Positions 340 through 55,000 of a stretch of 64,000 nt of DNA are shown here, one piece after another; the first letter of the stretch is position 1; the number at the start of each line of letters is the position of its first letter. This DNA is from a virus. Its lineage: Duplodnaviria; Caudoviricetes. The translations under genes and the position numbers were made by a program. The stretch lies in IMG/VR virus record IMGVR_UViG_3300025011_000016; one strand, given 5' to 3'. The notes beneath the pieces were generated by a model, which did no database searches, was not told where the DNA came from, and saw nothing but the letters and a program-made list of their open reading frames with translations.

Positions 340-1134
340 TATTATGAATTTCATTAACGAAGCAGATCGAGAAATCCATGTCTGCATATACAGTGATGTA
401 TATTAAAAAACTATTTTAATTGTCGGGGATCTCCTTAATGCTTTATTTAATAAAGATTGGACAATCCGCAGCCAAGATTCTATTTAATAGAATAAGGTTC
501 AACGACTATCGAAAGCTTTTAATTAAGTTAGTAGAGTAGATTACATATTGATGGTAATCGAAGTGGAGAGCTCCAATATTAAAATTAATTAATTTTAATA
601 TTGGATGAAGATATAGTCTAGTATCCTAATGTAAATTAGGGAAGTTCATAAGAGAACTGCATGTGAGTTATGACATATGTGAATATATCGTATGCCAAAA
701 CCCTAGTCATGGCAAATGCTAAGTTTGTCGGTCGAGTTATAACACATCAGGGATCATTTAATGGATCAGTTACTGAATTCTATAAGAAACTAATGGGATT
801 TGCAACTGAAATACCTGAGAATTTAATCGATGAATTTGAATATATATTTGCTGCACCGAAAACATTAACTAATACTAATCTAACTGATCTTATATCTAAT
901 GCTGAACAAACTGCTACATTTATTGTGAAATCATTAACTGGTGATAATTCATCCCCTAGTGATGATGATAACTTATTAAAAGATTTGTTATTTAATAAAA
1001 TCTCTAGAGAATTCCTACCAATGATTCCATGGAGTACTGCTGATACAATATTAGAGGAGTGTAAGATAGAATTGGAGAAGTTGAAAGCTGAAAAGAAAAT
1101 GACTACTCCTGAAGGTACTGAAGACGTACAATAA
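340..1134 (+). CDS. Portal protein, 3' exons (340..367 and 691..1134)
   Basis: Spliced reading IMNFINEAD|YAKTLVMANAKFVGRVITHQGSF aligns by eye with the T4 gp20-type C-terminal region (ELKFxKFIxxLQxxF). It sits directly beside the tube/sheath genes. Confidence 0.65.
368..690 (+). ncRNA. ORF-less group I intron (portal intron B, 323 nt)
   Basis: P1 exon GCAGAT pairs with IGS GTCTGC (U.G). Core motifs GGACAATCCGCAGCCAAG, GGTTCAACGACTA, GAAGATATAGTC. Omega-G at 690; frame restored. Confidence 0.9.
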
Positions 1135-6441: not shown

Positions 6442-7194
6442 CTATAAACCTTTTTTTATAAACTTTAGCTTAATATCAGTTTGAATCTCATCCATAACAT
6501 CATCATATTCATTAACTAACAAATTAAAATATGCTGTAACAAAATTACCTGTCATAATACCATTTGTAATTAATTGTTTAATTATACTACCTTCATAGCA
6601 TTCATCATCTGTAACATATTCCATAAAGTCTAGTGCATCAATATCCAAATTAATTATATGCTTTATTATACTTGGTAAATTTGATAATATAATGACATCA
6701 TCTTTATTCTTAACTTGTTTCCGTAATGATATTGACGTCACATCTTTCTTTTTAGGAACTTTATCCATCCTCTCTACTAGAATCTTCTTATTTCTAGTAA
6801 TATAGGTATAGATGTATTTACTAATATTTTTTTTATAACGTAATATCATAAAGTTATATAGTGCTTCTCCTACCGATATTACAAAATTATCAGATTCTTC
6901 TGAAGTATCTATATCTAAACCAAATTTATTATCTATTTCATTAATAACGAAATCAAAAAAGCTTCGTAATGCTGAATTGATATTAATTATAACCTCCATA
7001 TTAATATCTTGATATTGGTATTTAACGACATCACATTTTTCTGTAATTGTATTAACATAGTTAATATTAGTTGATAATGGGTCATTAATCTGATCCCTTA
7101 TATTTTCTTTCATCAAATCAAATGGTAGATCGGTTAATAAATTATCTATAACCAAATCACTACTTACTTCAAAATTTTCATTATCATAAAACAT
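6442..7194 (-). CDS. Hypothetical virion protein (250 aa)
   Basis: AGGAGG RBS; late promoter AACAAATTCATA at 7228..7239. Confidence 0.65.
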   Translation of the reverse strand: MFYDNENFEVSSDLVIDNLLTDLPFDLMKENIRDQINDPLSTNINYVNTITEKCDVVKYQYQDINMEVIININSALRSFFDFVINEIDNKFGLDIDTSEESDNFVISVGEALYNFMILRYKKNISKYIYTYITRNKKILVERMDKVPKKKDVTSISLRKQVKNKDDVIILSNLPSIIKHIINLDIDALDFMEYVTDDECYEGSIIKQLITNGIMTGNFVTAYFNLLVNEYDDVMDEIQTDIKLKFIKKGL

Positions 7195-7241
7195 TGCATA
7201 TTCCTCCTATTTTTAAACATTTCTACTTATGAATTTGTTAT

Positions 7242-7303
7242 ATTCATAATTAAAAGATATATAAGTAAGTTTAAACTTACTTATATATCTTTTAATTATG
7301 AAT
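7242..7303. terminator. 62-bp perfect palindrome at terminase 3' end
   Basis: ATTCATAATTAAAAGATATATAAGTAAGTTT|AAACTTACTTATATATCTTTTAATTATGAAT, no loop. Confidence 0.75.
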
Positions 7304-10300
7304 TGAGTTCATCGAAGAAATCCAATGGTATACCTGTTTCTGATGACATATCATCATCAAAATTTTCAACATAATTTTTTGGTGGAATTAACATATCACT
7401 ATGCTTCATTTCCCTACGAGCTTTTTGGATTTCTTCAATTAATTTTATATTATAATCGTCTTGAGTTTTAACACCAACATCTTTAAAATATCCCTTGCTA
7501 TCATCCGAGAGTTCTTCATATAGTTCATCATATGTTAACCCTTTATTACGTTTTTCTTCGTCGGGTATATCTCCCCTGACAAAACCGAATCTATGAAGAT
7601 TATTTCCATGATAGAATACATATAGAACTATTAGATATGACATTATTGAATCGTCATGAAAAGAAGTCCCTGCAGCTATTTTACCAGTTTTAGTTTTAAC
7701 TAGTCGTAATAGATCATCAATAATATTACAGGTAACAAATTTATCTTTAAATTCATTCACATGTCGTTCAAGTAAACTCCTGTCGTGTTAGTAGTATTCG
7801 TTAGATACCACGATAACTTAACCGTTTAGGTTCTTTGAACCGTCCGACCAACGGCGAAATCTTTATTTACGTTAGTTAATAAAGATAGTTTAAATGTATT
7901 ATAAATATTAATAGCCGCATTGTTATCTCTATCATCTATATGTCCACATTGTGGGCAATTAAAGACTCTTTGAGATAACTTCATTTTAGTTTTAACTTTA
8001 TGATTACAAACAGAGCATGTAATGGTACTATTCGGTTCTGCTAAAATATATTCACTACCATAAAAACGACATTTATATTTTAACACCTGCGTAAACGTAA
8101 AGGCTCCAACTCTATGAATACCCCTATTAATACGCTTAATACCATCAGACTCTGTTAATAAATCTTTAAAACTAAATTCATCAACTACTACGTTTCTATA
8201 GGTCTTGGCTAAGAATGTAGATACCTTCTGAATATAATCCATTCTAATATTCACTATTTTGGCGTGAATATCATTAAGCTTGGTTCTCGCTTTTATATAG
8301 TTCTTTGATGGATTACGTTTATCATATTTCTTCTTAGAAACTATTTCCGAAAGCTTATCAGTTTTCTTCTCTAGTTTCTTAATCTTCCCTTTCGGAAATT
8401 TAGGATTTATGATATCTTTTCCATCAAAACAAACTACTGGATTATGTATCCCTAGGTCTATACCTATAGTATTTTTCTCATGGTTATGACTTGGATTATC
8501 TATTTCATATGTGAATGATACATAATATTTAAAATTCTCCATACTAATACTCATTGTTTTCATCTCATGATGATATAAGAAGCTTATATCTTCATATGTT
8601 TTTAATTCCATATGCCCATATTCTCTATTAATAATAAAAGAGAATTTATTTTTATCGAGAATCTTAACAGCAGCTTGCTTAATATATATTCTAAAAGAAC
8701 CATTTCCATGAATCTTTCTTTTGAAATGTAGTTTACATCGCTGCTTATTTTTAATATCTTTAAAGAACTTATTAACGGCTAAGTTAACATCACTAACCGT
8801 TTCATTTTTTATAGACTTATTATATTCTCCAGTCCATTCAAATCCAGGTTCCTTTTCTTTCTTAGAATATATATGAGTAATAAAATCAAATTTATCAAAG
8901 AACTTCCTTAAATCTTTATCTACAATATTACCATTAAATTCTAGGATCTTATTAAAATACTCTAAAGTATTATTATATACAAATCGTCTATAACCAAAGC
9001 ATTTGTTTAAATATGTTACTTGTTCTTTAGTTGGTCGTATTCTTGTTTTAAAAGTCTTAATCAATTTTTATTCACCTCCTTTCTTATATTATTTGTTAAA
9101 GGTATAATATAATTGTATTAGGAATGAATTAGTAAGACTTACGGTTAAGTTATTCTCTAAGTTTCCTTAAAGCACAGACTATATCTTCACCCATTATAAT
9201 AATAATTATAATGGGGCCACCCATTTCGATTTAAGGGATTCTCACCCACTCACTTGAGCCCTACTCCTTTACGGATAGTCGTTGAACCTAAATCTATAAA
9301 TAGATCATTGGCTGCAGATTGTCCAATCTTAAACATTGTTACTTTGTTGTAGTTTAAGCACTAAGGAGTTTCCCGCAATTAAAGTAGTTTCAATTACATA
9401 TTACTATGCAACGTGACTCATACATGAATCATAACTTCTCTGGACTTATCTCCGGTCCAAACACCATATAGTTTTCGTCTAGCTGATTCTAATTTTAACA
9501 TACCTTCTGAGTCAAGTTTATCATCAAGTCCGGATGAAACAAGATCTTTATCATTATCAAAGTATAAATTAGAGCGTATATCTGTTAATTTTAAAGAATC
9601 CATTATGGCTTCACCATTAAAATTACGTTCTATACATAATATAGACTTAGGGATATGATGTTTGATAAGAGTAGTTATAAATTTAATAGTCTGAACTACA
9701 CCTATATATGGTGATTTAAATTCAGCAACAGGTTTTATAGTATATGGGTCAAATACCGTAACGGCAGTATTATCTTTACCATAACCATTAGAGGTATCAA
9801 CTCCAACGAAGTATATCCTATCTTTCTTCAAGGGTTCATATATATCTAATTTAAATAGTTTATTTATAAATATTTCTTCCTTAATTGGCTTCTTCATTTC
9901 TTCAATAGTGGCCAAATCTTCTGCGGGGAAAGGAGATTCGGATGAACCCCTCATTCTTTGAAGGAAGACCTCTCTTTTAATCTTTACTGGATTATTCAGT
10001 AAGATCTGACAGATACTTTTAAACCATATTTCATCTTTACCAAGTTGTTGATATTGGTATTCAATATAGACGATTCCACTTTCAGAATTAATTGCAATAT
10101 ATTCATCTAAATCTTCTTTAGTCCAATCATAAAACTTTTCAGTCCAACGACAAGTTGTAGCGATAATCTTTAATGCGTCCTGACCTGCTGAAGTATCTAA
10201 ATCTCCCGTTTATATTCATATGAATCGTTAATTCATATAGTCCATACGGACATCCCTAAGTTTCTTTAGGATACTAGACTATATCTTCATCTCTTAATAA

Positions 10301-12014
10301 AGTAATTACTCATCAATAAGAGAGTTTCTTATTTCGATTTAAGGGATTTTTTTACCCACTCACTTGAGCCCTACTATTTAGTCGTTGAACCTTTCTCTGC
10401 TTAATAGTTATATTCTTTATTAATGTGATTCCAAAGTTTCCTATGCTTTATTGCAATAATTAGTGCGTAAAAACTATTATTTTCTTTCTTTTCTTTATAA
10501 CCATAAAAATTCATAATTTTCATCATAGATAACTTTTGTGTCAGCATATTACATATTTCTCTAATTGTTTCCTCACTATAAACATTATTATTGTTACTAA
10601 TTCCTCTACAATAATTATTCCCATGATCAACCGCGTGTAAATTATTTTCCGAATATGTTGTCCATTCCAAATTTTCAAAATAATTATTTTCAGTATTACT
10701 GTCTTTATGATTTACAATAATCCTCCCGACAGTTTCATCAAAACCTTTACAAAATTCCCATGCAACTAATCGATGCACACCTATATATCTTCTGACATTA
10801 TCATTATCTCTTAAATGTATCTTAACATATCCATTTTTATCTCTAAAATTAATTTTCCGTATTTTATCTTTCTTAATATCAAACACTTTCCCATAATTAC
10901 TAATCATATACCTATCTTTTTGTATATTCGGATAAGTAACTGGCCTGAATTCTTCCTTTTCCATAGCTATTATAATATGCATAGTATCGATTTCCTCCTT
11001 CTTTTATTAATTAGTTTAATTGAATGTATAATCTTATTTAAATATTAAACAGAGACTTGGCTGCGGATTGTCCAATTCTAAACATTATTATCTTAATCTA
11101 GGTTAATTACTCCCAGCCACTATTATAGAAATATAATAGTTTGATAGTCTAGACTCTAAGAGGTTCCCCGCAATTAAAGAAAATCCTATGTGATATCACC
11201 ATCACATAGCCCTAGTTAAAGGTGTACTTGTGAAAATACGTCCATATTGGGCATTATTCCTTTTGGCATTTTGAGAGGCTGTAAGATATGCTGGACCCGA
11301 TGCTTCAACTATAGTTTTAATAAAAAGGGTAAATTCAACTTCATCACAGTACTGAATCGGCTGAGTTGATCCGCGACCGATACCCTCAGCTCCTTCTACT
11401 GAACGAGCCGATGGTTTGGCAATTATTTTATTATTATTAGTTGGGTTGGAGAGAGATTTGACATTGTCGTCACCTTCTACTTTTTTACCCTCATCATTAT
11501 AAACAACTTTAAATTGTAAATATTTAGGTAATAAATCTCTCTGTTTTTTCATTCGCAACAAATTATCATTAGCATCCTCTTGACGCTTATTTAAAAACAT
11601 CATTTCTGAATTTGTTGTCCCGAACAAAAAGCTCCAATCAATAATTGCCAAAGCAGACTGTGTTTTACCTATTTGACGTGGAATTACCTCATATAAATCA
11701 ATTCCATTTAGGAAACACCAAGTAGCAGCTAAATTCGCCCTATTTAATTGATACGGAATTCCAGTTCCACCTTGATCTGGGATTAAACAAACTTCCCTTA
11801 AAAAATACCATGGATTAACAAGACACTCATTAATTATTCTGAATATTTGTTCGTCGGTTAAAAAAGGGGAGTATGGATCGACTCCCCTTAATGACATATC
11901 ATAGAGTTTCAAAAAGAACATATTATTCTTAATACCAAGTTGTCGTAAATCCATTGCAGTCTGTAGAAATGATATATTTCTGGTGTCTACATCATAATCA
12001 AATTTTCTAGCCAT
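7296..12014 (-). CDS. terL: Terminase large subunit, three exons (12014..11220, 10206..9428, 7779..7296), about 685 aa spliced
   Basis: Walker A PRQIGKT, Walker B YCDEVEF; junction FTSTP|GDLDT; nuclease FVGVDTS and HDDSIMS; junction REVM-M|SLLERH. Exon sum 2058 nt is a multiple of 3. Confidence 0.9.
7780..9427 (-). mobile_element. IStron-type element: group I intron carrying tnpB (terminase intron 2, 1648 nt)
   Basis: 5' flank ...TTATGAT; ribozyme core 9427..~9150 (TTAATTGCGGGAA, GGACAATCTGCAGCCAA, GGTTCAACGACTA, GAAGATATAGTC, GAAA-capped P9), then RBS + tnpB, ending ...ACACGACAG. TGT after P7 can pair with ACA before omega-G (P9.0); splicing restores the terL frame. Confidence 0.85.
7826..9064 (-). 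CDS. tnpB: TnpB RNA-guided endonuclease (IS200/IS605/IS607 OrfB family)
   Basis: KTFKTRIRPTKEQ HTH; RuvC I GIDLG, RuvC II VVDEF, zinc finger CSVC/CPQC, RuvC III DRDNNAAINI; catalytic D-E-D intact. Confidence 0.95.
   Translation of the reverse strand: MIKTFKTRIRPTKEQVTYLNKCFGYRRFVYNNTLEYFNKILEFNGNIVDKDLRKFFDKFDFITHIYSKKEKEPGFEWTGEYNKSIKNETVSDVNLAVNKFFKDIKNKQRCKLHFKRKIHGNGSFRIYIKQAAVKILDKNKFSFIINREYGHMELKTYEDISFLYHHEMKTMSISMENFKYYVSFTYEIDNPSHNHEKNTIGIDLGIHNPVVCFDGKDIINPKFPKGKIKKLEKKTDKLSEIVSKKKYDKRNPSKNYIKARTKLNDIHAKIVNIRMDYIQKVSTFLAKTYRNVVVDEFSFKDLLTESDGIKRINRGIHRVGAFTFTQVLKYKCRFYGSEYILAEPNSTITCSVCNHKVKTKMKLSQRVFNCPQCGHIDDRDNNAAINIYNTFKLSLLTNVNKDFAVGRTVQRT
10207..11219 (-). mobile_element. 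Group I intron with HNH homing endonuclease (terminase intron 1, 1013 nt)
   Basis: Core motifs flank the ORF, which lies between the Q and R elements (P6 region); omega-G at 10207; P1 is weak (CCT/GGG) but the frame gives TSTP|GDLDT. Confidence 0.85.
10401..10982 (-). CDS. NUMOD4/HNH homing endonuclease (I-HmuI-like)
   Basis: YMISNYGKV, VHRLVAWEF, VNHKDSNTENNYFENLEW motifs; AAGGAGG RBS inside the intron. Confidence 0.9.
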   Translation of the reverse strand: MHIIIAMEKEEFRPVTYPNIQKDRYMISNYGKVFDIKKDKIRKINFRDKNGYVKIHLRDNDNVRRYIGVHRLVAWEFCKGFDETVGRIIVNHKDSNTENNYFENLEWTTYSENNLHAVDHGNNYCRGISNNNNVYSEETIREICNMLTQKLSMMKIMNFYGYKEKKENNSFYALIIAIKHRKLWNHINKEYNY

Positions 12015-12032
12015 AAAGAGCCACCTTCTTTT

Positions 12033-13274
12033 TTATGACTCATATCCTTTTGGATATTTAATAAATACACCATATTGCTTTTCTTTGATCTGCATTTGTA
12101 TAATACGTTCTCTAGTTTTTTCAAGTTGAGTTTTAAGATTTATCAAAGTTTGTTTCGACTGCTTGACTTTAGTGATATCACCTTTATTAATAATATCAAT
12201 AGATGAATTAACTAGATCTAATTTATCATAGATTCTATCTAAGACATAAATGCGGTCGTCGTTATTTTGAATTTTGTCAACTTCAATTAGAATCATGTCA
12301 ATATCGATCTGACTAATCTTTTTGACATTACCCGCAACATCAAACCAATCAAGGAAGGACTCATTAACTATCTTAAGTTTAGTATCAATGATAAATTGTT
12401 CAGTTACCATATTTTTATAAGTATTAACATCCATACCAAAAAAAGCTTGTTTGATTGAATTAAAAACAACCCTAATGAAATGACTTGGATTTCTATATAA
12501 TTCGGTTTGTATAGCATGTTTTAGTTTATTCTTTCTAAATTCAAGTTCAGTGATATTATCAACACTCCATAGTATAATAGTTTTAACATCACCGTCCATT
12601 TCTCCAGAACTTCTATTAATCAAACTATTCCCTTTAGTTGCAATTAATTTAGTGATGAAGTTATCAAGCTCAGTTCCATAACCCATTTTAACAACAAAAT
12701 TATCTGCGATTCTCTCAGATTGTACGTTGGTATAATGGAAGTTCTTTGAACTACAAGCTTCGGCTATTACTAGATCAAATAATTTACGGATCTTATTGTT
12801 TTCACATAATTTCTTAACGGCATAATCAGTTTGCATTATTTGATAACGCAAAATAGAATTTACTCTTTGGGGAATAGAATTGGAATATACTACATGGCCG
12901 ATTTCATGTAATAACACAGCAGTAATTTCTGCTGGATTTGCATTGAGATTCTTGTCGTATAATATAATGGAATCAATCTCAACAAACCATTCTTTGTTAC
13001 CATTCCATATTTCAACAACAACATCAGCATGAGATTTTTGAGTTAGAATGGCATCAATCATTAAGTTGATAGTATTAATAGTTGGATATATATTCATACC
13101 AAAAAATTGATTCGTATCGTTCTCCACTATAGAGATATTAAATGTTAAATCAAATGATCTTTTGATTATAGTTGATATCTTTGATAAGTTATTAATAATA
13201 TCTACCTTGTCCTTTATAGCCGAAAAACATTTTTCAATCAGTAAGAAATCCTGAGACTTATTTCCTATTGTCAT
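12033..13274 (-). CDS. Zincin-like metallopeptidase, probable head protein
   Basis: LLHEIGH (HEXXH) plus ERIADNFVVKMGYG; lies between capsid and terminase. Confidence 0.65.
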   Translation of the reverse strand: MTIGNKSQDFLLIEKCFSAIKDKVDIINNLSKISTIIKRSFDLTFNISIVENDTNQFFGMNIYPTINTINLMIDAILTQKSHADVVVEIWNGNKEWFVEIDSIILYDKNLNANPAEITAVLLHEIGHVVYSNSIPQRVNSILRYQIMQTDYAVKKLCENNKIRKLFDLVIAEACSSKNFHYTNVQSERIADNFVVKMGYGTELDNFITKLIATKGNSLINRSSGEMDGDVKTIILWSVDNITELEFRKNKLKHAIQTELYRNPSHFIRVVFNSIKQAFFGMDVNTYKNMVTEQFIIDTKLKIVNESFLDWFDVAGNVKKISQIDIDMILIEVDKIQNNDDRIYVLDRIYDKLDLVNSSIDIINKGDITKVKQSKQTLINLKTQLEKTRERIIQMQIKEKQYGVFIKYPKGYES

Positions 13275-23854: not shown

Positions 23855-26676
23855 TTATGGTCTGGATTTAAAGAAAGAATCTATATAAGAAGCTTCTCTC
23901 TTTTTAAATGTTAATGGATTAATAAGTTGTCGTCCTAATGCCTGGAAGGATAAACCTATTAAGACAGAAGGATGTTTTTCTAATGCGGATTCAACAGTCA
24001 TTATTTGATACTCAGCTTTTTCACCATACTTACTGAAATCCGGTCTATATAAGATATCCTTACTGTGTCTTAATAGAGGGTGTATCAACAATTCACCATG
24101 AACCGCATCTGAATCAATTTTAGATTCGATTAATAGATCTAACATCTTTTGACATAACTCATCAACAGATCTACATCCAACATGATCACTTCTATTAAGT
24201 AAATACATGATGTTATAAAGAGGACGTGTCAATTCGTTATTCTCAATTTCTAATACGAATATCTTAGAATCATCATCAATTTTAGCAAAGTCAATTTCAT
24301 AAGCGTCTTTATGAGATTTACTCTTATTCATTAACTCAACTATATCTGGAGATATATATAAGTCTTTCTGATTCAATTCCATACATTCTATAATCTCACC
24401 AGATTTTTTATGTTTAACATGGAATATAGTTACAAATGTATTGAAATCAGTATCATCATATTCATTAATACTAATAATATTTTTATTAATAATAACTAAA
24501 GAATAATCATTTAAGTTAATGTCGTCATTAGTTATATTAAGAAGAATTTCATTTGCATTAATAGTGAAAAACTTATAGAAATCAGCATTGAATTCTATCT
24601 TTTCCGAAACTGTTGTTAGTAGGTGTTTAGTTGATAATACTCTCTGAGATACAGGTTCTGTTATTCTTGATCCAGCATATCCACCAATAGAGATACCTTT
24701 ATTGGTATGATATAGTTGCCCATAACAATGCCAACATATTCCATCTTTAGCTGAACAAGTTGCTGGAGATTTAACATAGATAGTTTTACCAACAATATTT
24801 TCCTCATGACCTTCAATGACGTTATAATCTCTAGTATTCTCAAGACGATAATATCTTCCCTGTAATCGTCTTAAATGCTCTTTAGTTTTGATTTCGTATT
24901 GAATTGAATGAATGCTATTACATGTTTTAACAGTAGGACTTAATTTTATTCCTGATGTTAAAAGCATTACTAATCGTGCAAACGTATTTTCATATAGATC
25001 GTAAATCCATACAGTTCTCTAATGAACTTCCCTATAACTATATAGGATACAAGACTATATCACCATCCAATGATGGATGATTCTTATTTCAGTTTAACTA
25101 TAAACTTACGAGCTTTTACTCTAGTCGTTGAACCTTTCTCTTAGTAAGAGTATTGGCTGCGGATCGTCCAATCTTCAATTAAGAAGTTCTAAGGAGTTCC
25201 CCGTCAATTAAAGAAATTTTCTCATTATATATTACTATATAATGCCACCTGTAATTGATGGCCAGATCTACCCATACGTAAGTTGACATTATTCGTTACA
25301 TAATGTAGTCCACAAAGAACTCCCTATATTTCTATAGGATACCAGACTATCTCTTCTCATTTAATTAAATGAGTCTCTCCATTTCGATTTAAGAGTTTTC
25401 ACACCCACTCACTTTGAGCTCTAAATTAGTCGTTGAACCTTTCTCTTATTATAAAGAGACTTGGCTGCGGATTATCCAATCTTAAACATTATTACATTAG
25501 TAGTTTAAGCAGTAAGGAACTTCCCGTCAATTAAAAGAGAAATGGCTAAAAATTAACCAGTTTATTCATAATTAATGATTTTCTTCCACCACGATACTTT
25601 CACATAGGTCGTTAATCCATGCAGTTCTCTTATGAACTTCCCTAATATTTATTAGGATACAAGACTATATCACAATCTTCTATATAGAAGATTCCATTAA
25701 TTTCGATATAACTTTATATCTACGAGTCACGCTCTAGTCGTTGAACCTTATTCTTATATAAGAATCTTGGCTGCGGATTGTCCAATCTTCAATTAGAAGT
25801 TCTAAGGAGTTTCCCGTCAATTAAAATAGTTTTACAACATAAGTCCACCTATGCCGCCCCAAGTTGTTTTAGGGAGTCAATATAGTAATTAGTGATGTTG
25901 GATAATCCCCCTACTATGAAGTTACTATTGATCGGATGGGGGATTGTATTTCCAGAAAGATCCGGCTTCAGCCCCCCACTAATTGCGAACTCTGCTAACT
26001 GTTTATGTTTAATCCCAGCACCAGATTTTAGTATTGGCTGTAGCATATTTCCAACAGGATCATTTTCTAAAATGGCAACTTGCTCATGCATTAGATCATC
26101 TAGTAATGATTCTATTTCCGTAGGTTGAAGTCCGTCTGGAATAACCGTTCGTATGATTTCGTTAAATCTAGGTATACGTTCGCTTACGTCAATAAACGTC
26201 TCAATATTAATTGATAACCCCAATATCATATTAAAGTCAGTTGATATTCTAGATAGATTGTGGATCATATCTGCAATTACTTTATTCATTTTAGTATTAC
26301 TGATAATCTTTCTAAATGGTAAAACTATCTTTCTATCAACATATGATTTGATATAATCTGCCGATATCTTACTACAATCAACTATATAAGATTCATTCAA
26401 TCTATCAATATAACCCAACTTCATCATCGGTGACCAAAACATATAATTTGTTAAGAAATGTCTTAATTGGAGAGTATGAATTTGTTCTCCTTCTTTATCT
26501 GAAAATTTAAAATACACTGGGCATGTTCTCAACTCCTTAACTTCAAACCCTCGTTTTAAATAATCATAGAACAACTCTAGATTAGCTTTGTAGTCCTTCT
26601 TAGTAGCCATTAAGTTTGAGATAATAAAGATCTTATTGGATAGCTCACTGATTATTTTTCCTACATCCGAATCCAA
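23855..26676 (-). CDS. Non-virion RNA polymerase beta' C-terminal subunit, four exons (26676..25871, 25591..25556, 25276..25258, 24982..23855), about 662 aa
   Basis: Spliced bridge helix YYIDSL|GGRKSLIMNKLV|MGRSGH|FARLVML; zinc motif CSAKDGICWHCYG; trigger loop AGSRITEPVSQRVLSTKH; region H IGLSFQALGRQL. Exon sum 1989 nt. Confidence 0.9.
24983..25257 (-). ncRNA. ORF-less group I intron (beta'C intron 3, 275 nt)
   Basis: P1 GCCAT/GTGGC; core motifs present; ends GAAAATACG. Confidence 0.9.
25277..25555 (-). ncRNA. ORF-less group I intron (beta'C intron 2, 279 nt)
   Basis: P1 TGGT/GCCA; core motifs present; ends CAACTTACG. Confidence 0.85.
25592..25870 (-). ncRNA. ORF-less group I intron (beta'C intron 1, 279 nt)
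   Basis: P1 CCCT/GGGG; core motifs present; ends GAAAGTATCG. Confidence 0.85.
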
Positions 26677-36643: not shown

Positions 36644-37028
36644 ATGGGATTTCTTGGTTTTGAATCTAAACGTGAAAAAAATCTTAGGTTACAATTATTA
36701 GATGCTCAAAATGAAATTGGTAGATTAAAAGCCGAGAAGGAAGGTATTCCATTTTTCGGCACAAAATATTCTGATTCTGAGTAAAATTATGTGTTAATAC
36801 GAGACTTATAAATAGTGGCGATAACCAAGCCTGTTAATAATATTTATAAGTTGTAAAAAATCTTTATCGACTAACGTAAATAAAGATTTTCGCCGTTGGT
36901 CGGACGGTTTAAAGAACCTTAAACGGTTAAGTTATTATGGTATCTAACTAATACTACTAACACGACAGGACGATAGAATTAAAATATCCGCCGATGATAT
37001 AAGAAGAAGAGTAAATTCATCTAGATAA
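36644..37028 (+). pseudogene. Small gene interrupted by the IStron relic (5' part 36644..36775, 3' part 36969..37028)
   Basis: MGFLGF...GTKYSD ends in TGAT; joining it to the sequence after ACAG gives an in-frame DDRIKISADDIRRRVNSSR-stop. Confidence 0.45.
36776..36968 (+). mobile_element. Internally deleted IStron relic retaining the omegaRNA-like right end
   Basis: 36860..36970 nearly matches the tnpB 3'/right-end sequence at 7780..7900 and 45540..45651; no tnpB ORF or ribozyme core. Confidence 0.75.
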
Positions 37029-40540: not shown

Positions 40541-42630
40541 GTGTTAATGTCAAATGATGATATACGTTCAGTTATATTAGTTGATGAATGGGAACCTGAA
40601 GAAAGGGATGTGATTATCCGACATGATGGAAAACTAGTAATAATACCATTTGACAAAATATTTAACAAGGATAATATAACAAGTTTAAATACTTTTGTTA
40701 TTAAAAAAGAATCATATGTGAAACGTTTGGATCATGTACTGAATAAAGATGGCACTATATCTAAAGGTATATGTCATTATCTAAATTATTTCATTAAGTA
40801 TTATGATTTAGATAATGAGTTATTATTGTCATATATAAAACTCAAATACATTATTGACAATAAGAAAAAGTCTATTAAGTTAATATCTTTCATCAAGATG
40901 TTGTATTCTATTCTGTTTACAGAATCATTAAAGAATAAAATACGACACTTAGTAGAAGACAATTACCATGTTGATGTTACTTCACATAATGGTATTAAAT
41001 ATACCAAATCAATGGAATTTACAAATGAACATGCAAAACTATTAATGATGATCTCAATGAGTATGAAGATAATGGTTCCTATCATATTTCATTTTATCAA
41101 TTCGTCATCTATGTTAAAGGAACCGAATTATATCTTTCAATTTTATGAACGATTGTTCTATATGTATAAATATGATGAAGAGGTTGATATCTATAATAAA
41201 CTATGGGTATCTACATTGGCTAAAGTTAATGTGAATGCTACAAAACATCGAGTTATATGGGACCAGCGAGAAATATTTGGAACAGATCCGTTAATAGAGC
41301 TTGATAAACTATTAAAGGAGAAGATAATTTCTGAAACTATGTTCAAATATACATTTGATAAAAACATTATCAGTTTTAACAGTGTGGTAAAATAATCTAA
41401 TGCCACCTTTTCTTTAACTGACGGGAAGTTCCTTATAGCTTAAACTACTTAATCGTAATAATGTTTAAGATTGGATAATCCGCAGCCAAGATTCTTATAT
41501 AAGAATAAGGTTCAACGACTAGAGTGTGACTCGTAGATCTATAGTTTAGATTGAAATAAGAAAACTCATCTTAATTAAGATGAGAAGATATAGTCTTATA
41601 TCCTATATAACTATAGGGAAGTTCATAAGAGAACTGCATAGATTAACAACCTATGTGAACACGATGCTTAGAAAAACAGCTTGGTTACTTCATACGAGAA
41701 CCTTATGAATTCTCATTAATTGAGTTAAACAATAAAAAAGATCTCGACGGTTTTTTATAGAAGCCGGTTTTCTCTTAACTGACGGGAACTTCCTTATAGC
41801 TTAAACTACTATAAGTAATAATGTTTAAGATTGGACAATCCGCAACCAAGATTCTTAATACAAGAATAAGGTTCAACGACTAGAGTGTGACTCGTAGATT
41901 TATAACTAAATCGAAGTGGAGAAACTTCATAATATTATGAAGAAGATATAGTCTATTATCCTAAAGTAATTTAGGGAAGTTCATAAGAGAACTGTATAGA
42001 GTTATAATCTATATGAATATAAAGTTATCAGGATTAGATAAGCTTGAGATTAACAGTAATAAGATTGATGAATCTTTAATTATATTATCTGGGATTAATA
42101 TAAAGAAAACTATTAAGAGAATTAAGAATAAAATGAAAGTTAAGATCAGTGAAGATGAATTAGAATATTATAAGATCAATCATCACATTAATAAATTTCA
42201 TGTTAGTCTCATATTCTTTTTCTATGCTAGACATTTTGGTAATTATCGAGATCTTAATCTATTAACCCGAAGACAATATTTAACCTTACTAATACTTCTT
42301 AAACGTAAATTACAAATCCAAGGAAATACTTACTTACCCCAGGTTTTAACAAGTAACATTGAAGGTAAATTAAATACTCGTACAATTCAAAATACTAAAT
42401 TCTTAATGAAGATTGAAAATTCTTCTATATATCAATCATTAATGCAAGATAAATTTTCAACTTTAGAAGAATTAAAGAAATCTAATCTAATACTTAATCT
42501 ATTATCAACTATTCTTAATACAACATTTACATGTGTTGATTATGATAATCGAGACAAGTTGGGTACTACATTGGATATTAACTCTGATATGATATCCGAT
42601 GAGTTTCTTAATTTCTTGAATCAATTATAA
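40541..42630 (+). CDS. Candidate nvRNAP promoter-specificity (sigma-like, AR9 gp226/phiKZ gp68-type) subunit, three exons (40541..41388, 41667..41751, 42025..42630), about 512 aa
   Basis: Spliced frame FNSVV|LEKQLGYFIREPYEFSLIELNNKKDLDG|LSGLDKLE; exon sum 1539 nt. Size and position two genes from the chaperonin match my recollection of AR9 g228/g226. Confidence 0.55.
41389..41666 (+). ncRNA. ORF-less group I intron (278 nt)
   Basis: P1 GTGGT/GCCAC; P10 TCTAA pairs with exon TTAGA, fixing omega-G at 41666; core motifs present. Confidence 0.9.
41752..42024 (+). ncRNA. ORF-less group I intron (273 nt)
   Basis: P1 CGGT/GCCG; core motifs present; ends GAATATAAAG; frame restored. Confidence 0.9.
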
Positions 42631-44241: not shown

Positions 44242-45649
44242 ATATAGTCTGTGCTTTAAGGAAACTTAGAGAAATAACTTAATCAGTAGTCTTAATAATT
44301 CATTCCTAATAAGATATTATTATACTTATAACAAATAATATAAGAAAGGGGGTGAAGATAAATGATTAAGACTTTTAAAACGAGAATACGACCAACTAAA
44401 GAACAAGAGATATATTTAAACAAATGCTTTGGATATAGAAGATTCATATACAATAATGCTTTAGAATATTTTAATACCCTTTTAGAGCATAATGGTAATA
44501 TTATTGATAAAACATTAAAGAAGTTCTTTGATAAGTTTGATTATATTACTCATATATACTCTAAGAAAGAAAAGGAACCGGGATTTGAATGGACTCAAGA
44601 GTATAATAAGTCAATAAAGAATGAAGTGGCTAGTGATTTTAATATAGCTATTAATAAGTTCTTTAAAGATATTAAAGACAAGAAACGATGTAAATTACAT
44701 TTTAAAAGAAAGATTCATGGAAATGGTTCTTTTAGAATATACAAGACGAATAAAGGTAATGTTAAAATTATTGATAAGAAGTTATTCTCTTTTATTATTA
44801 ATAGAGAATACGGTCACATGCCATTGAAAACTTTTGAAGATATAAGCTTTTTATATCACTATGATATAAAAACAATGACTATTAGTATGAAGAATTTTAA
44901 ATATTATGTATCATTCACTTATGAAATAGATATCCCAAAGCATAAACATAAGAAAAATATGGTAGGTATAGATTTAGGAATACATAATCCAGTAGTTTGT
45001 TTTGATGGAAACGATATCATAAATCCTAAATTTCCGAAGGGAATTATTAAGAAACTAGAGAAGAAAGTTGATAAACTCTCAGTAATAGTTTCTAAAAAGA
45101 AGTATGATAAACGTAACCCATCAAAGAACTATATAAAAGCGAGAACCAAACTTAATGATATTCACGTCAAAATAGTGAATATCAGAATGGATTATATTCA
45201 GAAGGTATCTACATTCTTAGCTAAGACTTATAGAAACGTAATAGTTGATGAGTTTAGTTTTAAAGAGTTATTAACAGAGTCCGATGGTAATACGCGTATA
45301 AATAGAGGTATACACAGAGTTGGTGACTTTATGTTTACACAGGTGTTAAAATATAAATGTCACTTTTATGGTAGTGAATATATTTTAGCATTACCTAATA
45401 GTACCATTACATGCTCTGAATGTAATCATAAACTTAAAACTAAGTTAAAGTTATCTCAAAGAATCTTTAATTGTCCAATATGCGGACATATAGATGGTAG
45501 GGATAACAATGCTTCTATTAATATTTATAAGTCATTTAAAGGATCTTTATTAACTAACGTAAATAGAGATTTCGCCGTTGGTCGGACGGTTTAAAGAACC
45601 TTAACGGTTAAGTTATTGTGGTATCTAACAAGTACTACTAACACGACAG
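44242..45649 (+). mobile_element. 5'-truncated IStron copy: intron S/P9 remnant + tnpB + right end
   Basis: ATATAGTCTGTGCTTTAAGGAAACTTAGAG matches the terminase IStron just after its P7; upstream ribozyme core absent; ends ACACGACAG. Confidence 0.8.
44362..45594 (+). CDS. tnpB: TnpB, second intact copy
   Basis: About 80-85% identical by eye to 7826..9064; D-E-D catalytic residues intact. Confidence 0.95.
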   Translation: MIKTFKTRIRPTKEQEIYLNKCFGYRRFIYNNALEYFNTLLEHNGNIIDKTLKKFFDKFDYITHIYSKKEKEPGFEWTQEYNKSIKNEVASDFNIAINKFFKDIKDKKRCKLHFKRKIHGNGSFRIYKTNKGNVKIIDKKLFSFIINREYGHMPLKTFEDISFLYHYDIKTMTISMKNFKYYVSFTYEIDIPKHKHKKNMVGIDLGIHNPVVCFDGNDIINPKFPKGIIKKLEKKVDKLSVIVSKKKYDKRNPSKNYIKARTKLNDIHVKIVNIRMDYIQKVSTFLAKTYRNVIVDEFSFKELLTESDGNTRINRGIHRVGDFMFTQVLKYKCHFYGSEYILALPNSTITCSECNHKLKTKLKLSQRIFNCPICGHIDGRDNNASINIYKSFKGSLLTNVNRDFAVGRTV

Positions 45650-52020: not shown

Positions 52021-55000
52021 TTAATCATTTTCGAAACGTGTCATCATATATAGTGTATGAACACCCTCATTGGTTGTCTTTCTCATATTACTACCAGCGA
52101 TATTTAGAATATGAGCTTTAGATGTCATAATTTCAATAGCTTCTTTATTAGCTTCTTGACTAAATAAACCCTTTACTGTAACCTGATCCAAAATATTCAT
52201 ATAGATATTTAATCCATACAGTTCTCTTATGAACTTCCCTATATTAATATAGGATATTAGACTATCTCTTCAATAGAATAAATCTATTGTTTTCCCATTT
52301 CGATATATAACTATATCTACGAATTACTTCTAGTCGTTGAACCTTTCTCTTATATAAGAGACTTGGCTGCGGATTGTCCAATCTTCCATTAAAGAAGCTA
52401 TAAGGAGTTTCCCGACAGTTAAGGAAAATACGGCAATACAATGACCGTCGTACATGTAAACTCCATATTTTCATATGGCATGGACTATATCTTCACCGTA
52501 TAATAATAAATTATTAATTAGGTGTCCTGCACTTCCCAACTAACCCACAAATTAGTCAGTACACTACTAACTACTATATAATTATATGATAGTAATTTTC
52601 GTTAGTCTCTACATCTTCTCTAATTAATTTACATATTTTCACATATTGTAATTTTAACATGGGGGTTTTTATTTTGGGTGTATCATTTAGTTTAGACTCT
52701 ATTTTAATCAATATTTCATTACGGGAATTTTTATCACAATAGAATACAAAATATCCTTGAATAATACGTCCAAATCGAACCGCATGAGTTACAGAACTTT
52801 TATTACTATCTATTGAATCAGCAAATGACTTCGCTCCTTGGAATATATGAAATAACCCATCTTTAAATGCAATTATAGGTTTAGATTTATCTCGTTTAGT
52901 TTGTTCAGAATGTCTAAATAATTTTGTACTTTCACTCATCTTATATTTAGACTCACTATTCATAGTTCCACCGACCCCACCTGTTTTCTTATTATATCCA
53001 ATATTAGGATCATTTGCTTTTAAAGTTGATATCCAATATACCTCTTTTTCGTTCATTTCATTTTTAGAGGTGCATGTGTCTATTATACTGCAATCAAAAT
53101 TATTAAATCCATATTCATTAACTATTTTTATAATATGATATAAATTCGATTTCCTATTAAGCTTTTTATACTTATAATCCTTAAGTCGTGAATGTAGATT
53201 TATTGTCTGACCAATATAAATTTTACCATCTATATTATTTCTCAACATATATATTACACCAAAATGTTTTTTCGATTCAATTATTAGATCATCATTATAC
53301 ATAATAACCCCCCTTATTATATATAAGTTAGTATAAAAGTATTTTTTTACAATATATGAATTTCGTAAATCAATTAAAGCTTGACACGGTATTTCCAGCT
53401 ATCCATATTTCAGGACCTTAGGTTCTCTTACGAAGCTTATTCGTCAATGCTTATTTCACTTCTACCGTTAGCATGAGTATTGTGATACCCATACACCGCC
53501 TGTTAAGCGTTCACAGGATTTTTAACTAAGCTATTTCTAGCAAAGGGAGACAACAACTTTTATCTCCGTTTAAACCAGGTAGATATAAATTTGACATACT
53601 CACAGTATCTGCAAATAGAGTGGATATTTCTTCTTTAGGTAAACTAAGATCGATCCTAGGATAATTCGTATAGACTCTATTTCCAATAAACATCGGTATA
53701 GTTTGGTGGGTACTTAGGACTGATATTTTGTTAGGAAAGCTACTGAAATAATCTGAAATAGGATATCTCGTAACGAATACCATTTTATCTGATGTAACAT
53801 CAACTGCCGCTTGATATAAAATATCACACCAAGTTGCCTTCCTTTGTACTAAGGGAGATTCAGTTTCAGGAACCCCTGGTTTATAATCTTTTCCTATAAA
53901 TCGCATATATAATTTCTTCCCATCAGATCTAGGTTCCTCGACGGGAAGTTCAATTGGTGTAAATCTATCGGATACACTAAATATGAATCTATCAATTTGT
54001 TTTTTAAGATATTCTTCGTTGAAATATAATGAGGGATCTTTTAATTTCACATATCCCATGGAACCGTCCGGATTTCTTACAGGATACTTATTACCAACCT
54101 TCTCTAATTCTCTATGGAAGAAATTTTTAACCCAATTTATTATAAATGGTGTAAATAATGAACATGTTTGTGCAAGAGGAATACCAACATGATAAAAATC
54201 TATTTGCATCTCAGATGGTTTATTTGCTTTGAATATAGGTGCAGAAATTCGTTTATTCATATAGAATATAACTCTATACAGTTCTCTCATGAACTTCCCT
54301 AATTTTCATTAGGATACTAGACTATATCTTCAGGAAATTAAGAATTCCTGAACTCCCATTTCAATACAATAATGTATCTAACTCACGGTAAATTAATATA
54401 ACCATATTTCCGTGTGATAGTCGTTGAACCTTATTCTATTAGATAGAATCTTGGCTGCGGATTGTCCAAACTTAAACATTGTTACTTTAAGTGGTTTAAG
54501 TTCTAAGGAGATTCCCGACAATTAAGGAGCTACGTGCAGTAAATCCACACTCCTCGATCCGAAATCAACCGATTTACCCATTAAATTTTTTCTAATTAAT
54601 CCATTCTTCTTTTCTATTCTACCTTTGAGCAAATCATAAATTTCTACTAAGACTTCCTGAACCTTAGCCCTAGTTCCATTAAGTACAAAATCAAAATTAT
54701 TGGAGTTCCTCAACACAGTTGCGAATCTTAATAATTTAGCGTACTTATCATTGATCTCATGATGACTAATCTTACCCTGTGTTGCTGATTGTAAATTAAC
54801 ATCACGATAGAATGCTGGCACTACAATCCAGTACTCAGTAAATAAAGTATCTTTATCATACGATCTCAGCAAGTCAATTCTTTCACTACGTATAGAACTG
54901 GCATTCTTTTCAAAGTTTATTTTTTCCCAATTTTTATATAAGAATTCTAATCCAGTCTCACCAGATTCCTCAGCTTCAACCAATTGTCCATTTTTATCTA

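Follow-up and report, generated by a model that had tools for sequence, protein, structure and literature searches.

A probable tnpA-less IStron in the terL gene of an AR9/PBS1-like jumbo phage: a candidate RNA-guided homing intron

The terminase large subunit gene (terL) of a jumbo phage is split by a 1648-nt element that is probably an IStron lacking tnpA, of the IS200/IS605 type ("group A"-like), with DNA ends that would coincide with the splice sites of a group I intron and with a TnpB that would allow it to home. The gene lies on the minus strand of a 64,000-nt stretch of phage DNA, termed the window here. For bacteria, both IStrons and homing by TnpB are established, and intron homing by a tnpA-less IStron is not a new idea, as a 2026 review already proposes TnpB-mediated spread.

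Anatomy of the element and its host gene

An initial annotation had described a group I ribozyme followed by an intact tnpB at 7780-9427. This was correct to the base, with a match to the full RF00028 model, Pfam and PHROG matches to the ORF, and both features on the minus strand. The locus comprises the following features:

11220..12023, minus: terL exon 1, ATPase part, approximate (PHROG terminase large subunit, E 3e-57; residues 4-272 of a relative's TerL)
10207..11219, minus: terL intron 1, group I, ends approximate, with an HNH/NUMOD4 ORF at 10982..10401 before P7 (Pfam NUMOD4, HNH_3)
9428..10206, minus: terL exon 2, its last 5 nt (ATGAT, 9432..9428) being the P1 exon strand and putative TAM
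7780..9427, minus: IStron, 1648 nt, mobile unit and intron in one (ends common to three paralogous copies; frame restored on removal)
9155..9427, minus: group I ribozyme core P1-P9, with internal guide GAGUCA (RF00028, 83.9 bits, full model)
9141..9154, minus: 5' strand of a P9.1-like long-range helix (AATAACTTAACCGT), pairing with 7825..7813
7826..9064, minus: tnpB, 412 aa, TTG start (Shine-Dalgarno AGGAGGTG at 9080..9073)
7780..7950, minus: putative omegaRNA scaffold or right end, overlapping the 3' end of tnpB (from conservation)
parts of the right end, minus: P9.1 3' strand 7825..7813; terminal hairpin 7811..7791; tail TAACACGACAG, with omega-G at 7780
7760..7779, minus: putative omegaRNA guide, the first 20 nt of terL exon 3 (GAGTTTACTTGAACGACATG), from the IStron/TnpB rule
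7296..7779, minus: terL exon 3, end of the nuclease domain with HDD motif (alignment to AR9 and relative TerL)

The RF00028 match spans model positions 1-253 at 9437..9155 (Rfam; 83.9 bits, E 7e-20). P1 of the terL copy pairs the exon ..UGAU with GUCA of the internal guide, and in the Rfam alignment U9428 provides the exon side of the G.U pair; P10 with exon 3 is weak in this copy, as read by eye. The Shine-Dalgarno sequence sits 8 nt before the TTG start of tnpB. At 7780 the right terminus reads ...TAACACGACAG, and the conserved end is ...ACACGACAG. A 13-bp P9.1-like duplex (9154..9141 with 7825..7813) surrounds the tnpB ORF and is predicted at -13 to -20 kcal/mol in all copies. A MIR7696 match at 7243..7302 (Rfam, E<=1, 7000-12500) was rejected as a miRNA, the sequence being a palindromic terminator.

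Joining 9428 to 7779 in silico gives a single frame (...REVM-M-SLLERHVNE...) that aligns collinearly across the joint with the uninterrupted TerL of phage AR9. Residues 273-534 of an uninterrupted 736-aa TerL from IMG/VR relatives likewise align to 10206..9421 and residues 533-735 to 7778..7302, which bears out the earlier proposal that removal restores the terminase frame. An empty terL site would read AAGTTATGAT|GAGTTTACTT at its junction. We infer that the terL pre-mRNA self-splices, and it is through this splicing that insertion of the IStron would be harmless to the phage. The other terL intron, intron 1, gives a partial RF00028 match at 10323..10256 (model positions 160-251), and the relative TerL has no sequence corresponding to it.

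Copies of the element in the same phage

The phage is AR9/PBS1-like, of ~250-270 kb, and carries three further full copies, in ligA, in a RecD-like helicase gene and in a gene of ~900 aa; with the truncated copy and the solo end described below, this one genome has six members of the family, the four full ones being in unrelated genes. In the four full copies the element ends are identical and the flanks differ, with homology beginning and ending at the same nucleotides, so that three paralogous copies independently confirm both ends given in the initial annotation. The ligA frame is restored by removal, as read directly off the sequence. Two shorter members of the family lie in the window:

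44242..45649, plus: 5'-truncated copy, starting inside P7/P9, intergenic (87.7% identical to element positions 244-1648)
36803..36968, plus: solo right end or omegaRNA-like remnant of the same IStron family (homology to the right end)

The truncated copy retains a complete right end and an intact 410-aa tnpB at 44362..45594 on the plus strand (the same protein as P0127). The earlier match of the anatomy to an IStron, with the right end at the 3' splice site, stands; this second tnpB and the solo right end had been missed. The flank of the truncated copy resembles the J8/7-P7 core of the intron at 13/16 positions, no more than chance would give.

Ribozymes of the paralogs score 78.8-80.8 bits (Rfam RF00028). 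A batch Rfam search had suggested that the ligA and ~900-aa-gene copies lack ribozymes; this was rejected, as short stretches searched alone gave 80.3 and 78.8 bits and the batch miss is therefore a filter artefact. In P1 the exon and internal guide covary, being TGAT/GUCA in terL and the helicase and AGAT/GUCU in ligA and the ~900-aa gene, and at least two matched changes are needed on the copy tree. The 5' flanks read ATGAT (terL), TAGAT (two copies) and TTGAT (helicase), and the 3' terminus ACAG. A candidate fifth insertion site (L008) was rejected as a chimeric assembly of the helicase 5' flank and the 3' flank of the ~900-aa gene. Among the tnpB copies, paralog comparisons gave dN/dS of 0.11-0.23 at dS of 0.37-0.58; every copy is under purifying selection.

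Summed depth on the IStron in contigs of the sequencing runs was 6-10 times that of the flanks, which fits a repeat family and is not a copy number. Scans of IMG/VR with the TnpB protein and with the right-end pattern gave no matches. In JGI metagenome_contigs the terL exon 2 query had no match, and the sole match to the right-end pattern was a 1-kb fragment of the truncated copy from the window itself.

These properties are close to those of group A IStrons (CdISt1/CdiIStron) of Clostridioides difficile and relatives, which likewise have a 5' Twort-like group I ribozyme and a 3' IS605-family tnpB (Tourasse 2014, PMC4227781; Zedaveinyte 2023, 10.1101/2023.11.20.567912). Their DNA ends are also splice sites; they too occur in several copies, on the sense strand of unrelated genes whose frames are restored, and insert after a T-ending pentanucleotide-type site, the helicase copy here having TTGAT itself. 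The motifs are close, not identical: published group A elements insert 3' of TTGAT/ATTAT/TTTAT and end in TCAG, compared with WGAT and ACAG here. Further differences are the setting, Firmicute and Fusobacterium chromosomes as against a groundwater jumbo phage of virulent, AR9/PBS1-like type, the Asp at RuvC-II in the TnpB clade found here, and the fact that no tnpA or tnpA fragment was seen; group A IStrons without ORF A (tnpA) are, however, accepted members (PMC4227781).

IStrons on phage genomes are also found in group B (IS607-type), namely CbISt3 and CbISt4 of Clostridium botulinum phages c-st and D-1873, and CboIStron. For CboIStron, cleavage of the empty site by TnpB/omegaRNA and the conflict between splicing and omegaRNA have been shown experimentally. 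Group B differs in its serine TnpA, GG-ending targets, TGGG TAM and CGG ends; its phages are plasmid-like prophages of toxigenic Clostridium, and the published examples carry tnpA or remnants.

TnpB and the right end

The ORF at 9064..7826 contains the Pfam domains HTH_OrfB_IS605, OrfB_IS605 and Cas12f1-like_TNB and matches PHROG 506 (E 3e-73). D203 and D380 of RuvC are conserved and the CxxC...CxxC zinc finger is present; known inactivated TnpB relatives lose these residues. In each of the 14 sequences of the family the RuvC-II Glu is replaced by Asp (Asp295, with Glu296 next to it); all 116 outgroup TnpBs have Glu. Asp occupies this position in 20 of the 84 tree rows, a distribution explained by two changes. 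The closest TnpBs, from a search of 1.8 billion representatives, form a supported clade, and a group I core lies directly upstream of tnpB in both contigs checked from it; beyond its own family, the TnpB is at most 43% identical to the nearest sequences. Decay to a dead nuclease was rejected as the origin of Asp295, since the Asp is common to a deep, selected clade of IStron-linked TnpBs.

It is improbable that the Asp variant is an attenuated nuclease with a regulatory role, mainly binding right-end RNA (or DNA) to tune splicing or terL expression, or acting as an RNA-guided binder like exapted TnpB-like regulators. Such a role would fit the fixation of the ED-to-DE change in all copies and the wider clade, the reported modulation of IStron splicing by TnpB and omegaRNA (10.1101/2023.11.20.567912) and the competition of the P9.1-like helix with the omegaRNA fold. 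Asp is still a metal-binding carboxylate, however; the protein retains D203, D380 and its zinc finger, and an acidic residue is retained across the long branches of the clade.

The TnpB ranked seventh among the 1.8 billion representatives, and placed in the same supported group of the tree, is that of Staphylococcus phage Machias (MW349128, annotated 'transposase'), although it is only 38% identical. There too a ribozyme and tnpB precede an end reading ...GACAG, inserted in gyrB after ..GGAT, and splicing would restore GLEAVRHRSD-MYVGAIDG. Machias differs in having the canonical RuvC-II Glu and a much smaller ribozyme without an Rfam match. We found no publication describing IStrons of Staphylococcus jumbo phages.

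No part of the element is better conserved than the right end, where 89% of the columns of the copy alignment are invariant. Its terminal hairpin has one compensatory pair; the fold z-score of the right end is only -0.98, and no omegaRNA-type family matched it in Rfam (E<=1, 7000-12500). Both the solo remnant and a TnpB-less derivative (joint 7886 to 9081) have preserved it, with ~107-166 nt of right end as against ~46 nt after the stop codon. These forms bear on a very improbable arrangement in which an older intron without an ORF received tnpB as an independent, IS-derived insertion into its P9.1 loop. The right end of that insertion would then fall just past the tnpB stop codon, its guide would be the P9.1 3' strand, and its targets would be TnpB-less sister introns, not the terL exon. 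The position of the ORF inside the 13-bp helix and the existence of the TnpB-less derivative are as this would predict, but homology reaches ...ACACGACAG and then stops in six of six copies, including the truncated and solo copies outside introns; the right end kept in the TnpB-less and solo forms is far longer than the stretch past the stop codon; and in published IStrons the omegaRNA gives way to the guide at the 3' splice site.

For a single group A-like IStron, the reading we prefer, published examples indicate that the omegaRNA guide would be the 3' flank and the TAM the 5' flank (PMC4227781; 10.1101/2023.11.20.567912; PMC13565253), the guide rule (10.1101/2023.11.20.567912; PMC13565253) being that applied to exon 3. 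Elsewhere in the window and loci, the putative guides had no TAM-flanked target at up to three mismatches. Purifying selection on tnpB, conservation and retention of the right end, and uninterrupted host genes in a relative without a TnpB match (below) support a working TnpB/omegaRNA module.

Intron-less alleles and routes of spread

In a related phage without a TnpB match the parts corresponding to terL exons 2 and 3 are contiguous in one 736-aa frame. The IStron is thus polymorphic at the same terL site, being absent from IMG/VR relatives with 66% TerL identity. The related phage without a TnpB match also has ligA, the helicase gene and the ~900-aa gene as single open frames of 702, 394 and 897 aa, and compared with it all four split genes regain their frames on removal of the element. 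The initial annotation had suggested a search of related terL genes for an empty TGAT site; uninterrupted terL was found, but the sole intron-less allele, from the 66%-identical relative, has TGTT in place of TGAT and four mismatches to the 20-nt putative guide, and so no natural susceptible target was seen. No near-identical empty terL allele was seen among the IMG/VR relatives. A joint skipping 9427..7780 was not reported in contigs of the sequencing runs, which drop rare variants and are uninformative either way.

By analogy with published IStron/TnpB rules, TnpB would be translated from unspliced or excised intron RNA and would bind an omegaRNA consisting of ~7950..7780 and ~16-20 nt of exon 3, the formation of which would compete with splicing (PMC4227781; 10.1101/2023.11.20.567912; PMC13521648; PMC13565253). 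The complex would cut an IStron-free terL allele (..TGAT then GAGTTTACTTGAACG..), and recombinational repair off the IStron-bearing genome in the same cell would copy the element in. The outcome would be homing or retention, possibly with damage to a co-infecting competitor, and we infer homing into intron-less alleles. There are at least four non-homologous sites, and allelic homing alone is therefore insufficient and a further source of spread is needed. Moves to such sites would most likely depend on a Y1 TnpA that acts in trans at WGAT and is encoded by the host or by a different element, after which the internal guide would be re-matched to the new exon.

The earlier statement that the window holds no tnpA is upheld for the 70 stop-to-stop ORFs of 85-330 aa scanned with Pfam, among which there was no Y1_Tnp and no resolvase; there was none in the whole genome of phage Machias either. 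Both results weigh against a rather unlikely alternative in which TnpB/omegaRNA serves retention only and spreads no intron between phages, the sites in essential genes being due to TnpA transposition and tolerance by splicing. The WGAT sites and truncated copies do require transposition-like moves, and restorative homing is the role of TnpB that has been shown experimentally (10.1101/2023.03.14.532601; 10.1101/2023.11.20.567912). However, the copies are old (dS ~0.4-0.6) and each tnpB is still selected, which is hard to explain without excision; moreover, retention and inter-genome homing use the same cleavage and are not mutually exclusive.

Homing, as we favour it here, has a counterpart in homing-endonuclease group I introns (T4 td/I-TevI; PhiPA3 gp210, PMC11620839), which are likewise self-splicing, lie in essential phage genes and encode a nuclease that should cleave the allele lacking the intron when another phage co-infects; for the PhiPA3 gp210 intron a competitive benefit has been shown (PMC11620839). 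Their nucleases recognise DNA by protein contact and their ORFs lie in a peripheral loop before P7, whereas recognition here would be RNA-guided. The guide would be supplied by the downstream exon, and each new insertion site would therefore re-program the nuclease automatically. It is a possibility, which we advance tentatively, that the IStron has given up a transposase-driven life and is now a self-reprogramming RNA-guided homing intron, its copies forming a multi-guide arsenal against intron-less co-infecting relatives at essential loci, with super-Mendelian inheritance, competitor exclusion and an Asp-type RuvC-II nuclease.

Spread of tnpA-less IStrons as RNA-guided homing introns is explicitly an open question (PMC13565253). 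The phage offers a clean natural case, with at least five selected tnpB copies, no transposase in the parts searched, four essential genes split and copy-specific guides. The TnpB group includes elements of culturable Staphylococcus jumbo phages, and homing is therefore testable by ordinary co-infection crosses. Should the nuclease prove inactive, this would be a well-documented case of a known element with a further host range and a variant sequence. If it is active, RuvC-II would work with Asp in place of Glu, competition between phages would involve RNA-guided nucleases, and this would help to explain the tolerance of these jumbo phages for so many introns.

The terL element and its predicted splice joint

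The element interrupting terL is, we are close to certain, a tnpA-less IStron of the IS605 type, built on the two features listed here.

Ribozyme and tnpB of the terL element
9437..9155, minus strand: group I ribozyme (full-length Rfam group I intron match, 83.9 bits, E 7e-20)
9064..7826, minus strand: tnpB (TTG start, 412 aa)

The complete ribozyme core and intact tnpB described in the initial annotation were both recovered. In the Rfam alignment the last exon base, U9428, is paired in P1 with a G of the internal guide GAGUCA, a G.U pair being the norm at group I 5' splice sites. The tnpB ORF carries the Pfam domains HTH_OrfB_IS605, OrfB_IS605 and Cas12f1-like_TNB and matches PHROG 506 (E 3e-73), and its closest solved structures are the TnpB entries 8exa and 8h1j. 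The sequence AGGAGGTG is located 90 nt past the ribozyme match and 8 nt before the TTG start, and the element terminates at 7780 with ...TAACACGACAG.

Joining 9428 to 7779 in silico gave the single frame ...SREVM-M-SLLERHVNEF..., as first proposed. This joint is backed by homology and not by frame alone, because uninterrupted TerL proteins align across it: exons 2 and 3 match neighbouring in-frame stretches of unsplit TerL from AR9, PBS1 and phiR1-37; alignment of the spliced protein with AR9 TerL crosses the joint and extends through the nuclease HDD motif; and residues 4-272, 273-534 and 533-735 of an unsplit 736-aa TerL from IMG/VR relatives map to 12023..11220, 10206..9421 and 7778..7302 respectively. 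The gene therefore holds two introns, one with an HNH ORF (~11219..10207) and the TnpB element. Between the terL stop and the following gene, 7243..7302 is a perfect long palindrome with a weak MIR7696 Rfam match on both strands, probably a bidirectional terminator.

Related copies and intron density

No close phage was found in INPHARED, where matches were confined to intron-core snippets. The protein database places the tnpB of the terL element on groundwater-metagenome contigs of 248-272 kb, which encode additional TnpBs with 84-87% identity to it; in TerL sequence the phage resembles the AR9/PBS1/phiR1-37/Staphylococcus S6 group of jumbo phages. Aligning contexts gave four full-length copies, each with a ribozyme (78.8-83.9 bits), tnpB and right end.

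Copies of the element and their flanks
terL (window): 5' flank ..TTATGAT, 3' flank GAGTTTAC..
NAD-ligase gene ligA (locus L001): 5' flank ..TATAGAT, 3' flank TTATGCCT..
RecD-like helicase gene (loci L010, L007): 5' flank ..AATTGAT, 3' flank TATAAGCA..
~900-aa gene (locus L009): 5' flank ..TTTAGAT, 3' flank ATAAGGTA..
44242..45649, plus strand: 5'-truncated copy, intergenic, with an intact 410-aa tnpB and full right end
36803..36968, plus strand: solo right end, 166 nt, omegaRNA-like, between two ORFs, lacking ribozyme and tnpB

In all four full copies the shared sequence starts directly 3' of ..GAT and ends directly after ..ACACGACAG; because these homology limits are identical, both element ends are fixed without any splice-site argument. 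A further contig, L008 (ERZ909591 k127_43395), was rejected as a separate copy, being a chimera that joins the helicase 5' flank to the 3' flank of the ~900-aa-gene copy via the repeat, a caution that short contigs spanning this family misassemble. Homology of the truncated copy begins within P7/P9 (ATATAGTCTG..), directly after a terminator-like hairpin; it retains the 3' strand of P9.1 with a degenerate 5' strand, and cannot splice. By analogy, the flank GACGATAGAATTAAAATATC would be the guide of the solo right end; no target for it was found in the window or the other loci compared. Metagenome contigs also hold a derivative without the tnpB ORF (joint 7886 to 9081).

The window has an extraordinary density of group I introns, with seven Rfam matches above gathering score; L001 and L010 hold 6-7 more.

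Other group I intron features in the window
358..641, plus strand: Rfam match
25030..25880, minus strand: Rfam matches, three introns in tandem
52237..52453, minus strand: Rfam match
54297..54575, minus strand: Rfam match
41412..41521 and 41775..41882, plus strand: intron-core-like stretches (BLAST matches, no Rfam match)
52463..52445, minus strand: micro-exon of ~20 nt between two tandem introns, GAGTTTACATGTACGACGG

The micro-exon, like terL exon 3, directly follows an intron 3' end, and 17 of 19 positions agree with the putative guide target at the start of that exon; the likeness may be accidental or a relic of ectopic intron movement.

Conservation of ribozyme, TnpB and right end

P1 covaries with the insertion site: TGAT copies carry the guide GUCA and AGAT copies GUCU, for which the copy tree, (ligA, (terL, (helicase, (truncated, ~900-aa gene)))), calls for a minimum of two matched changes. 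Only 2 nt separate this guide from the P2 hairpin on its 3' side (TTGCATA..TATGCAA; window 9427..9390 and paralogs). In IS608-type left ends the tetranucleotide for TnpA target reading has the same geometry to its hairpin, a likeness suggesting that P1 pairing and transposase target reading may share the same nucleotides.

The tnpB gene is open in 5/5 copies, the truncated one included, and values among copies (dS 0.37-0.58, dN/dS 0.11-0.23) show that they are old and each kept under purifying selection. Invariant columns make up 89% of the last ~84 alignment columns versus 66-82% in the ORF, and the terminal hairpin of the right end shows a compensatory change (GUGGUAU/AUACUAC versus AUGGUAU/AUACCAU); precisely this conserved end survives in the solo remnant and in the derivative without tnpB. 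A 13-bp helix between 9154..9141, just 3' of P9, and 7825..7813, just 3' of the tnpB stop (-13 to -20 kcal/mol in every copy), is predicted to close the tnpB loop for the ribozyme while occupying presumed omegaRNA scaffold nucleotides, the same type of conflict between splicing and guide RNA as reported for IStrons (10.1101/2023.11.20.567912; PMC13521648).

The family conserves D203 (RuvC-I), D380 (RuvC-III) and a CxxC..CxxC finger. RuvC-II reads VVVD295E296F in 14/14 family sequences, whereas a word-indexed search returned E-D/N-L in 116/116 outgroup TnpBs. The apparent restriction of Asp to this family was revised because an exhaustive HMMER search reached many nearest representatives that also bear it. 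The Asp/Glu label needs only two changes on the TnpB tree, where the family is nested among Asp-bearing sequences within a group of 33 (support 100/99), and in both Asp-type relatives checked (contigs L013 and L015) tnpB is immediately preceded by a group I J8/7-P7-P9 core. Asp at RuvC-II has thus been retained for long across this IStron-linked TnpB clade and does not mark decay.

Transposase, empty alleles and prospects for homing

In line with the initial annotation, no tnpA was found in the window: among the 70 stop-to-stop ORFs of 85-330 aa compared with Pfam, none matched Y1_Tnp or a resolvase. The 'transposase' CPT_Machias_224 of a published relative, Staphylococcus phage Machias, groups with the TnpB of the terL element (38% identity, seventh best representative) and belongs to an unannotated IStron in gyrB.

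The Machias IStron
L012 2158..3918 (MW349128 227828..229588): gyrB region, with the IStron at ~L012 2230..3882 including the 'transposase' gene

Here the exon ends ..CGGAT and the element ..AAGACAG, and splicing in silico restores GLEAVRHRSD-MYVGAIDG. The Machias annotation omits the IStron and a 24-codon first exon, setting the gyrB CDS start at an internal Met. Rfam at E<=0.01 missed the mini-ribozyme, and the complete 274-kb record has no Y1 TnpA match.

A 210-kb IMG/VR relative (85% complete) has no TnpB match and only ~5 group I intron matches, and all four host genes (terL, ligA, helicase and ~900-aa gene) are uninterrupted. Its empty ligA and helicase sites retain ..TAGAT. The empty TGAT-GAGTTT terL site envisaged for related phages did not appear: this allele reads ..TGTT and departs from the putative 20-nt guide at 4 positions, so that it would not be targeted. 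The metagenome contigs examined contained no near-identical empty terL allele.

The element has the layout of a group A (IS200/IS605-type) IStron (PMC4227781; 10.1101/2023.11.20.567912). The IStrons already published from phages are CbISt3/4, IS607-type elements of C. botulinum phages, and we found no paper on IS605-type IStrons within essential genes of jumbo phages; a 2026 review already proposes homing by tnpA-less IStrons, as awaiting validation. Judged from its sequence, the terL element very likely self-splices. By analogy with known systems, homing or retention driven by TnpB and omegaRNA would be the preferred mechanism, with odds from about even to good, and spread to new sites requires an additional step. 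The value of the element is chiefly as a natural case open to direct test.
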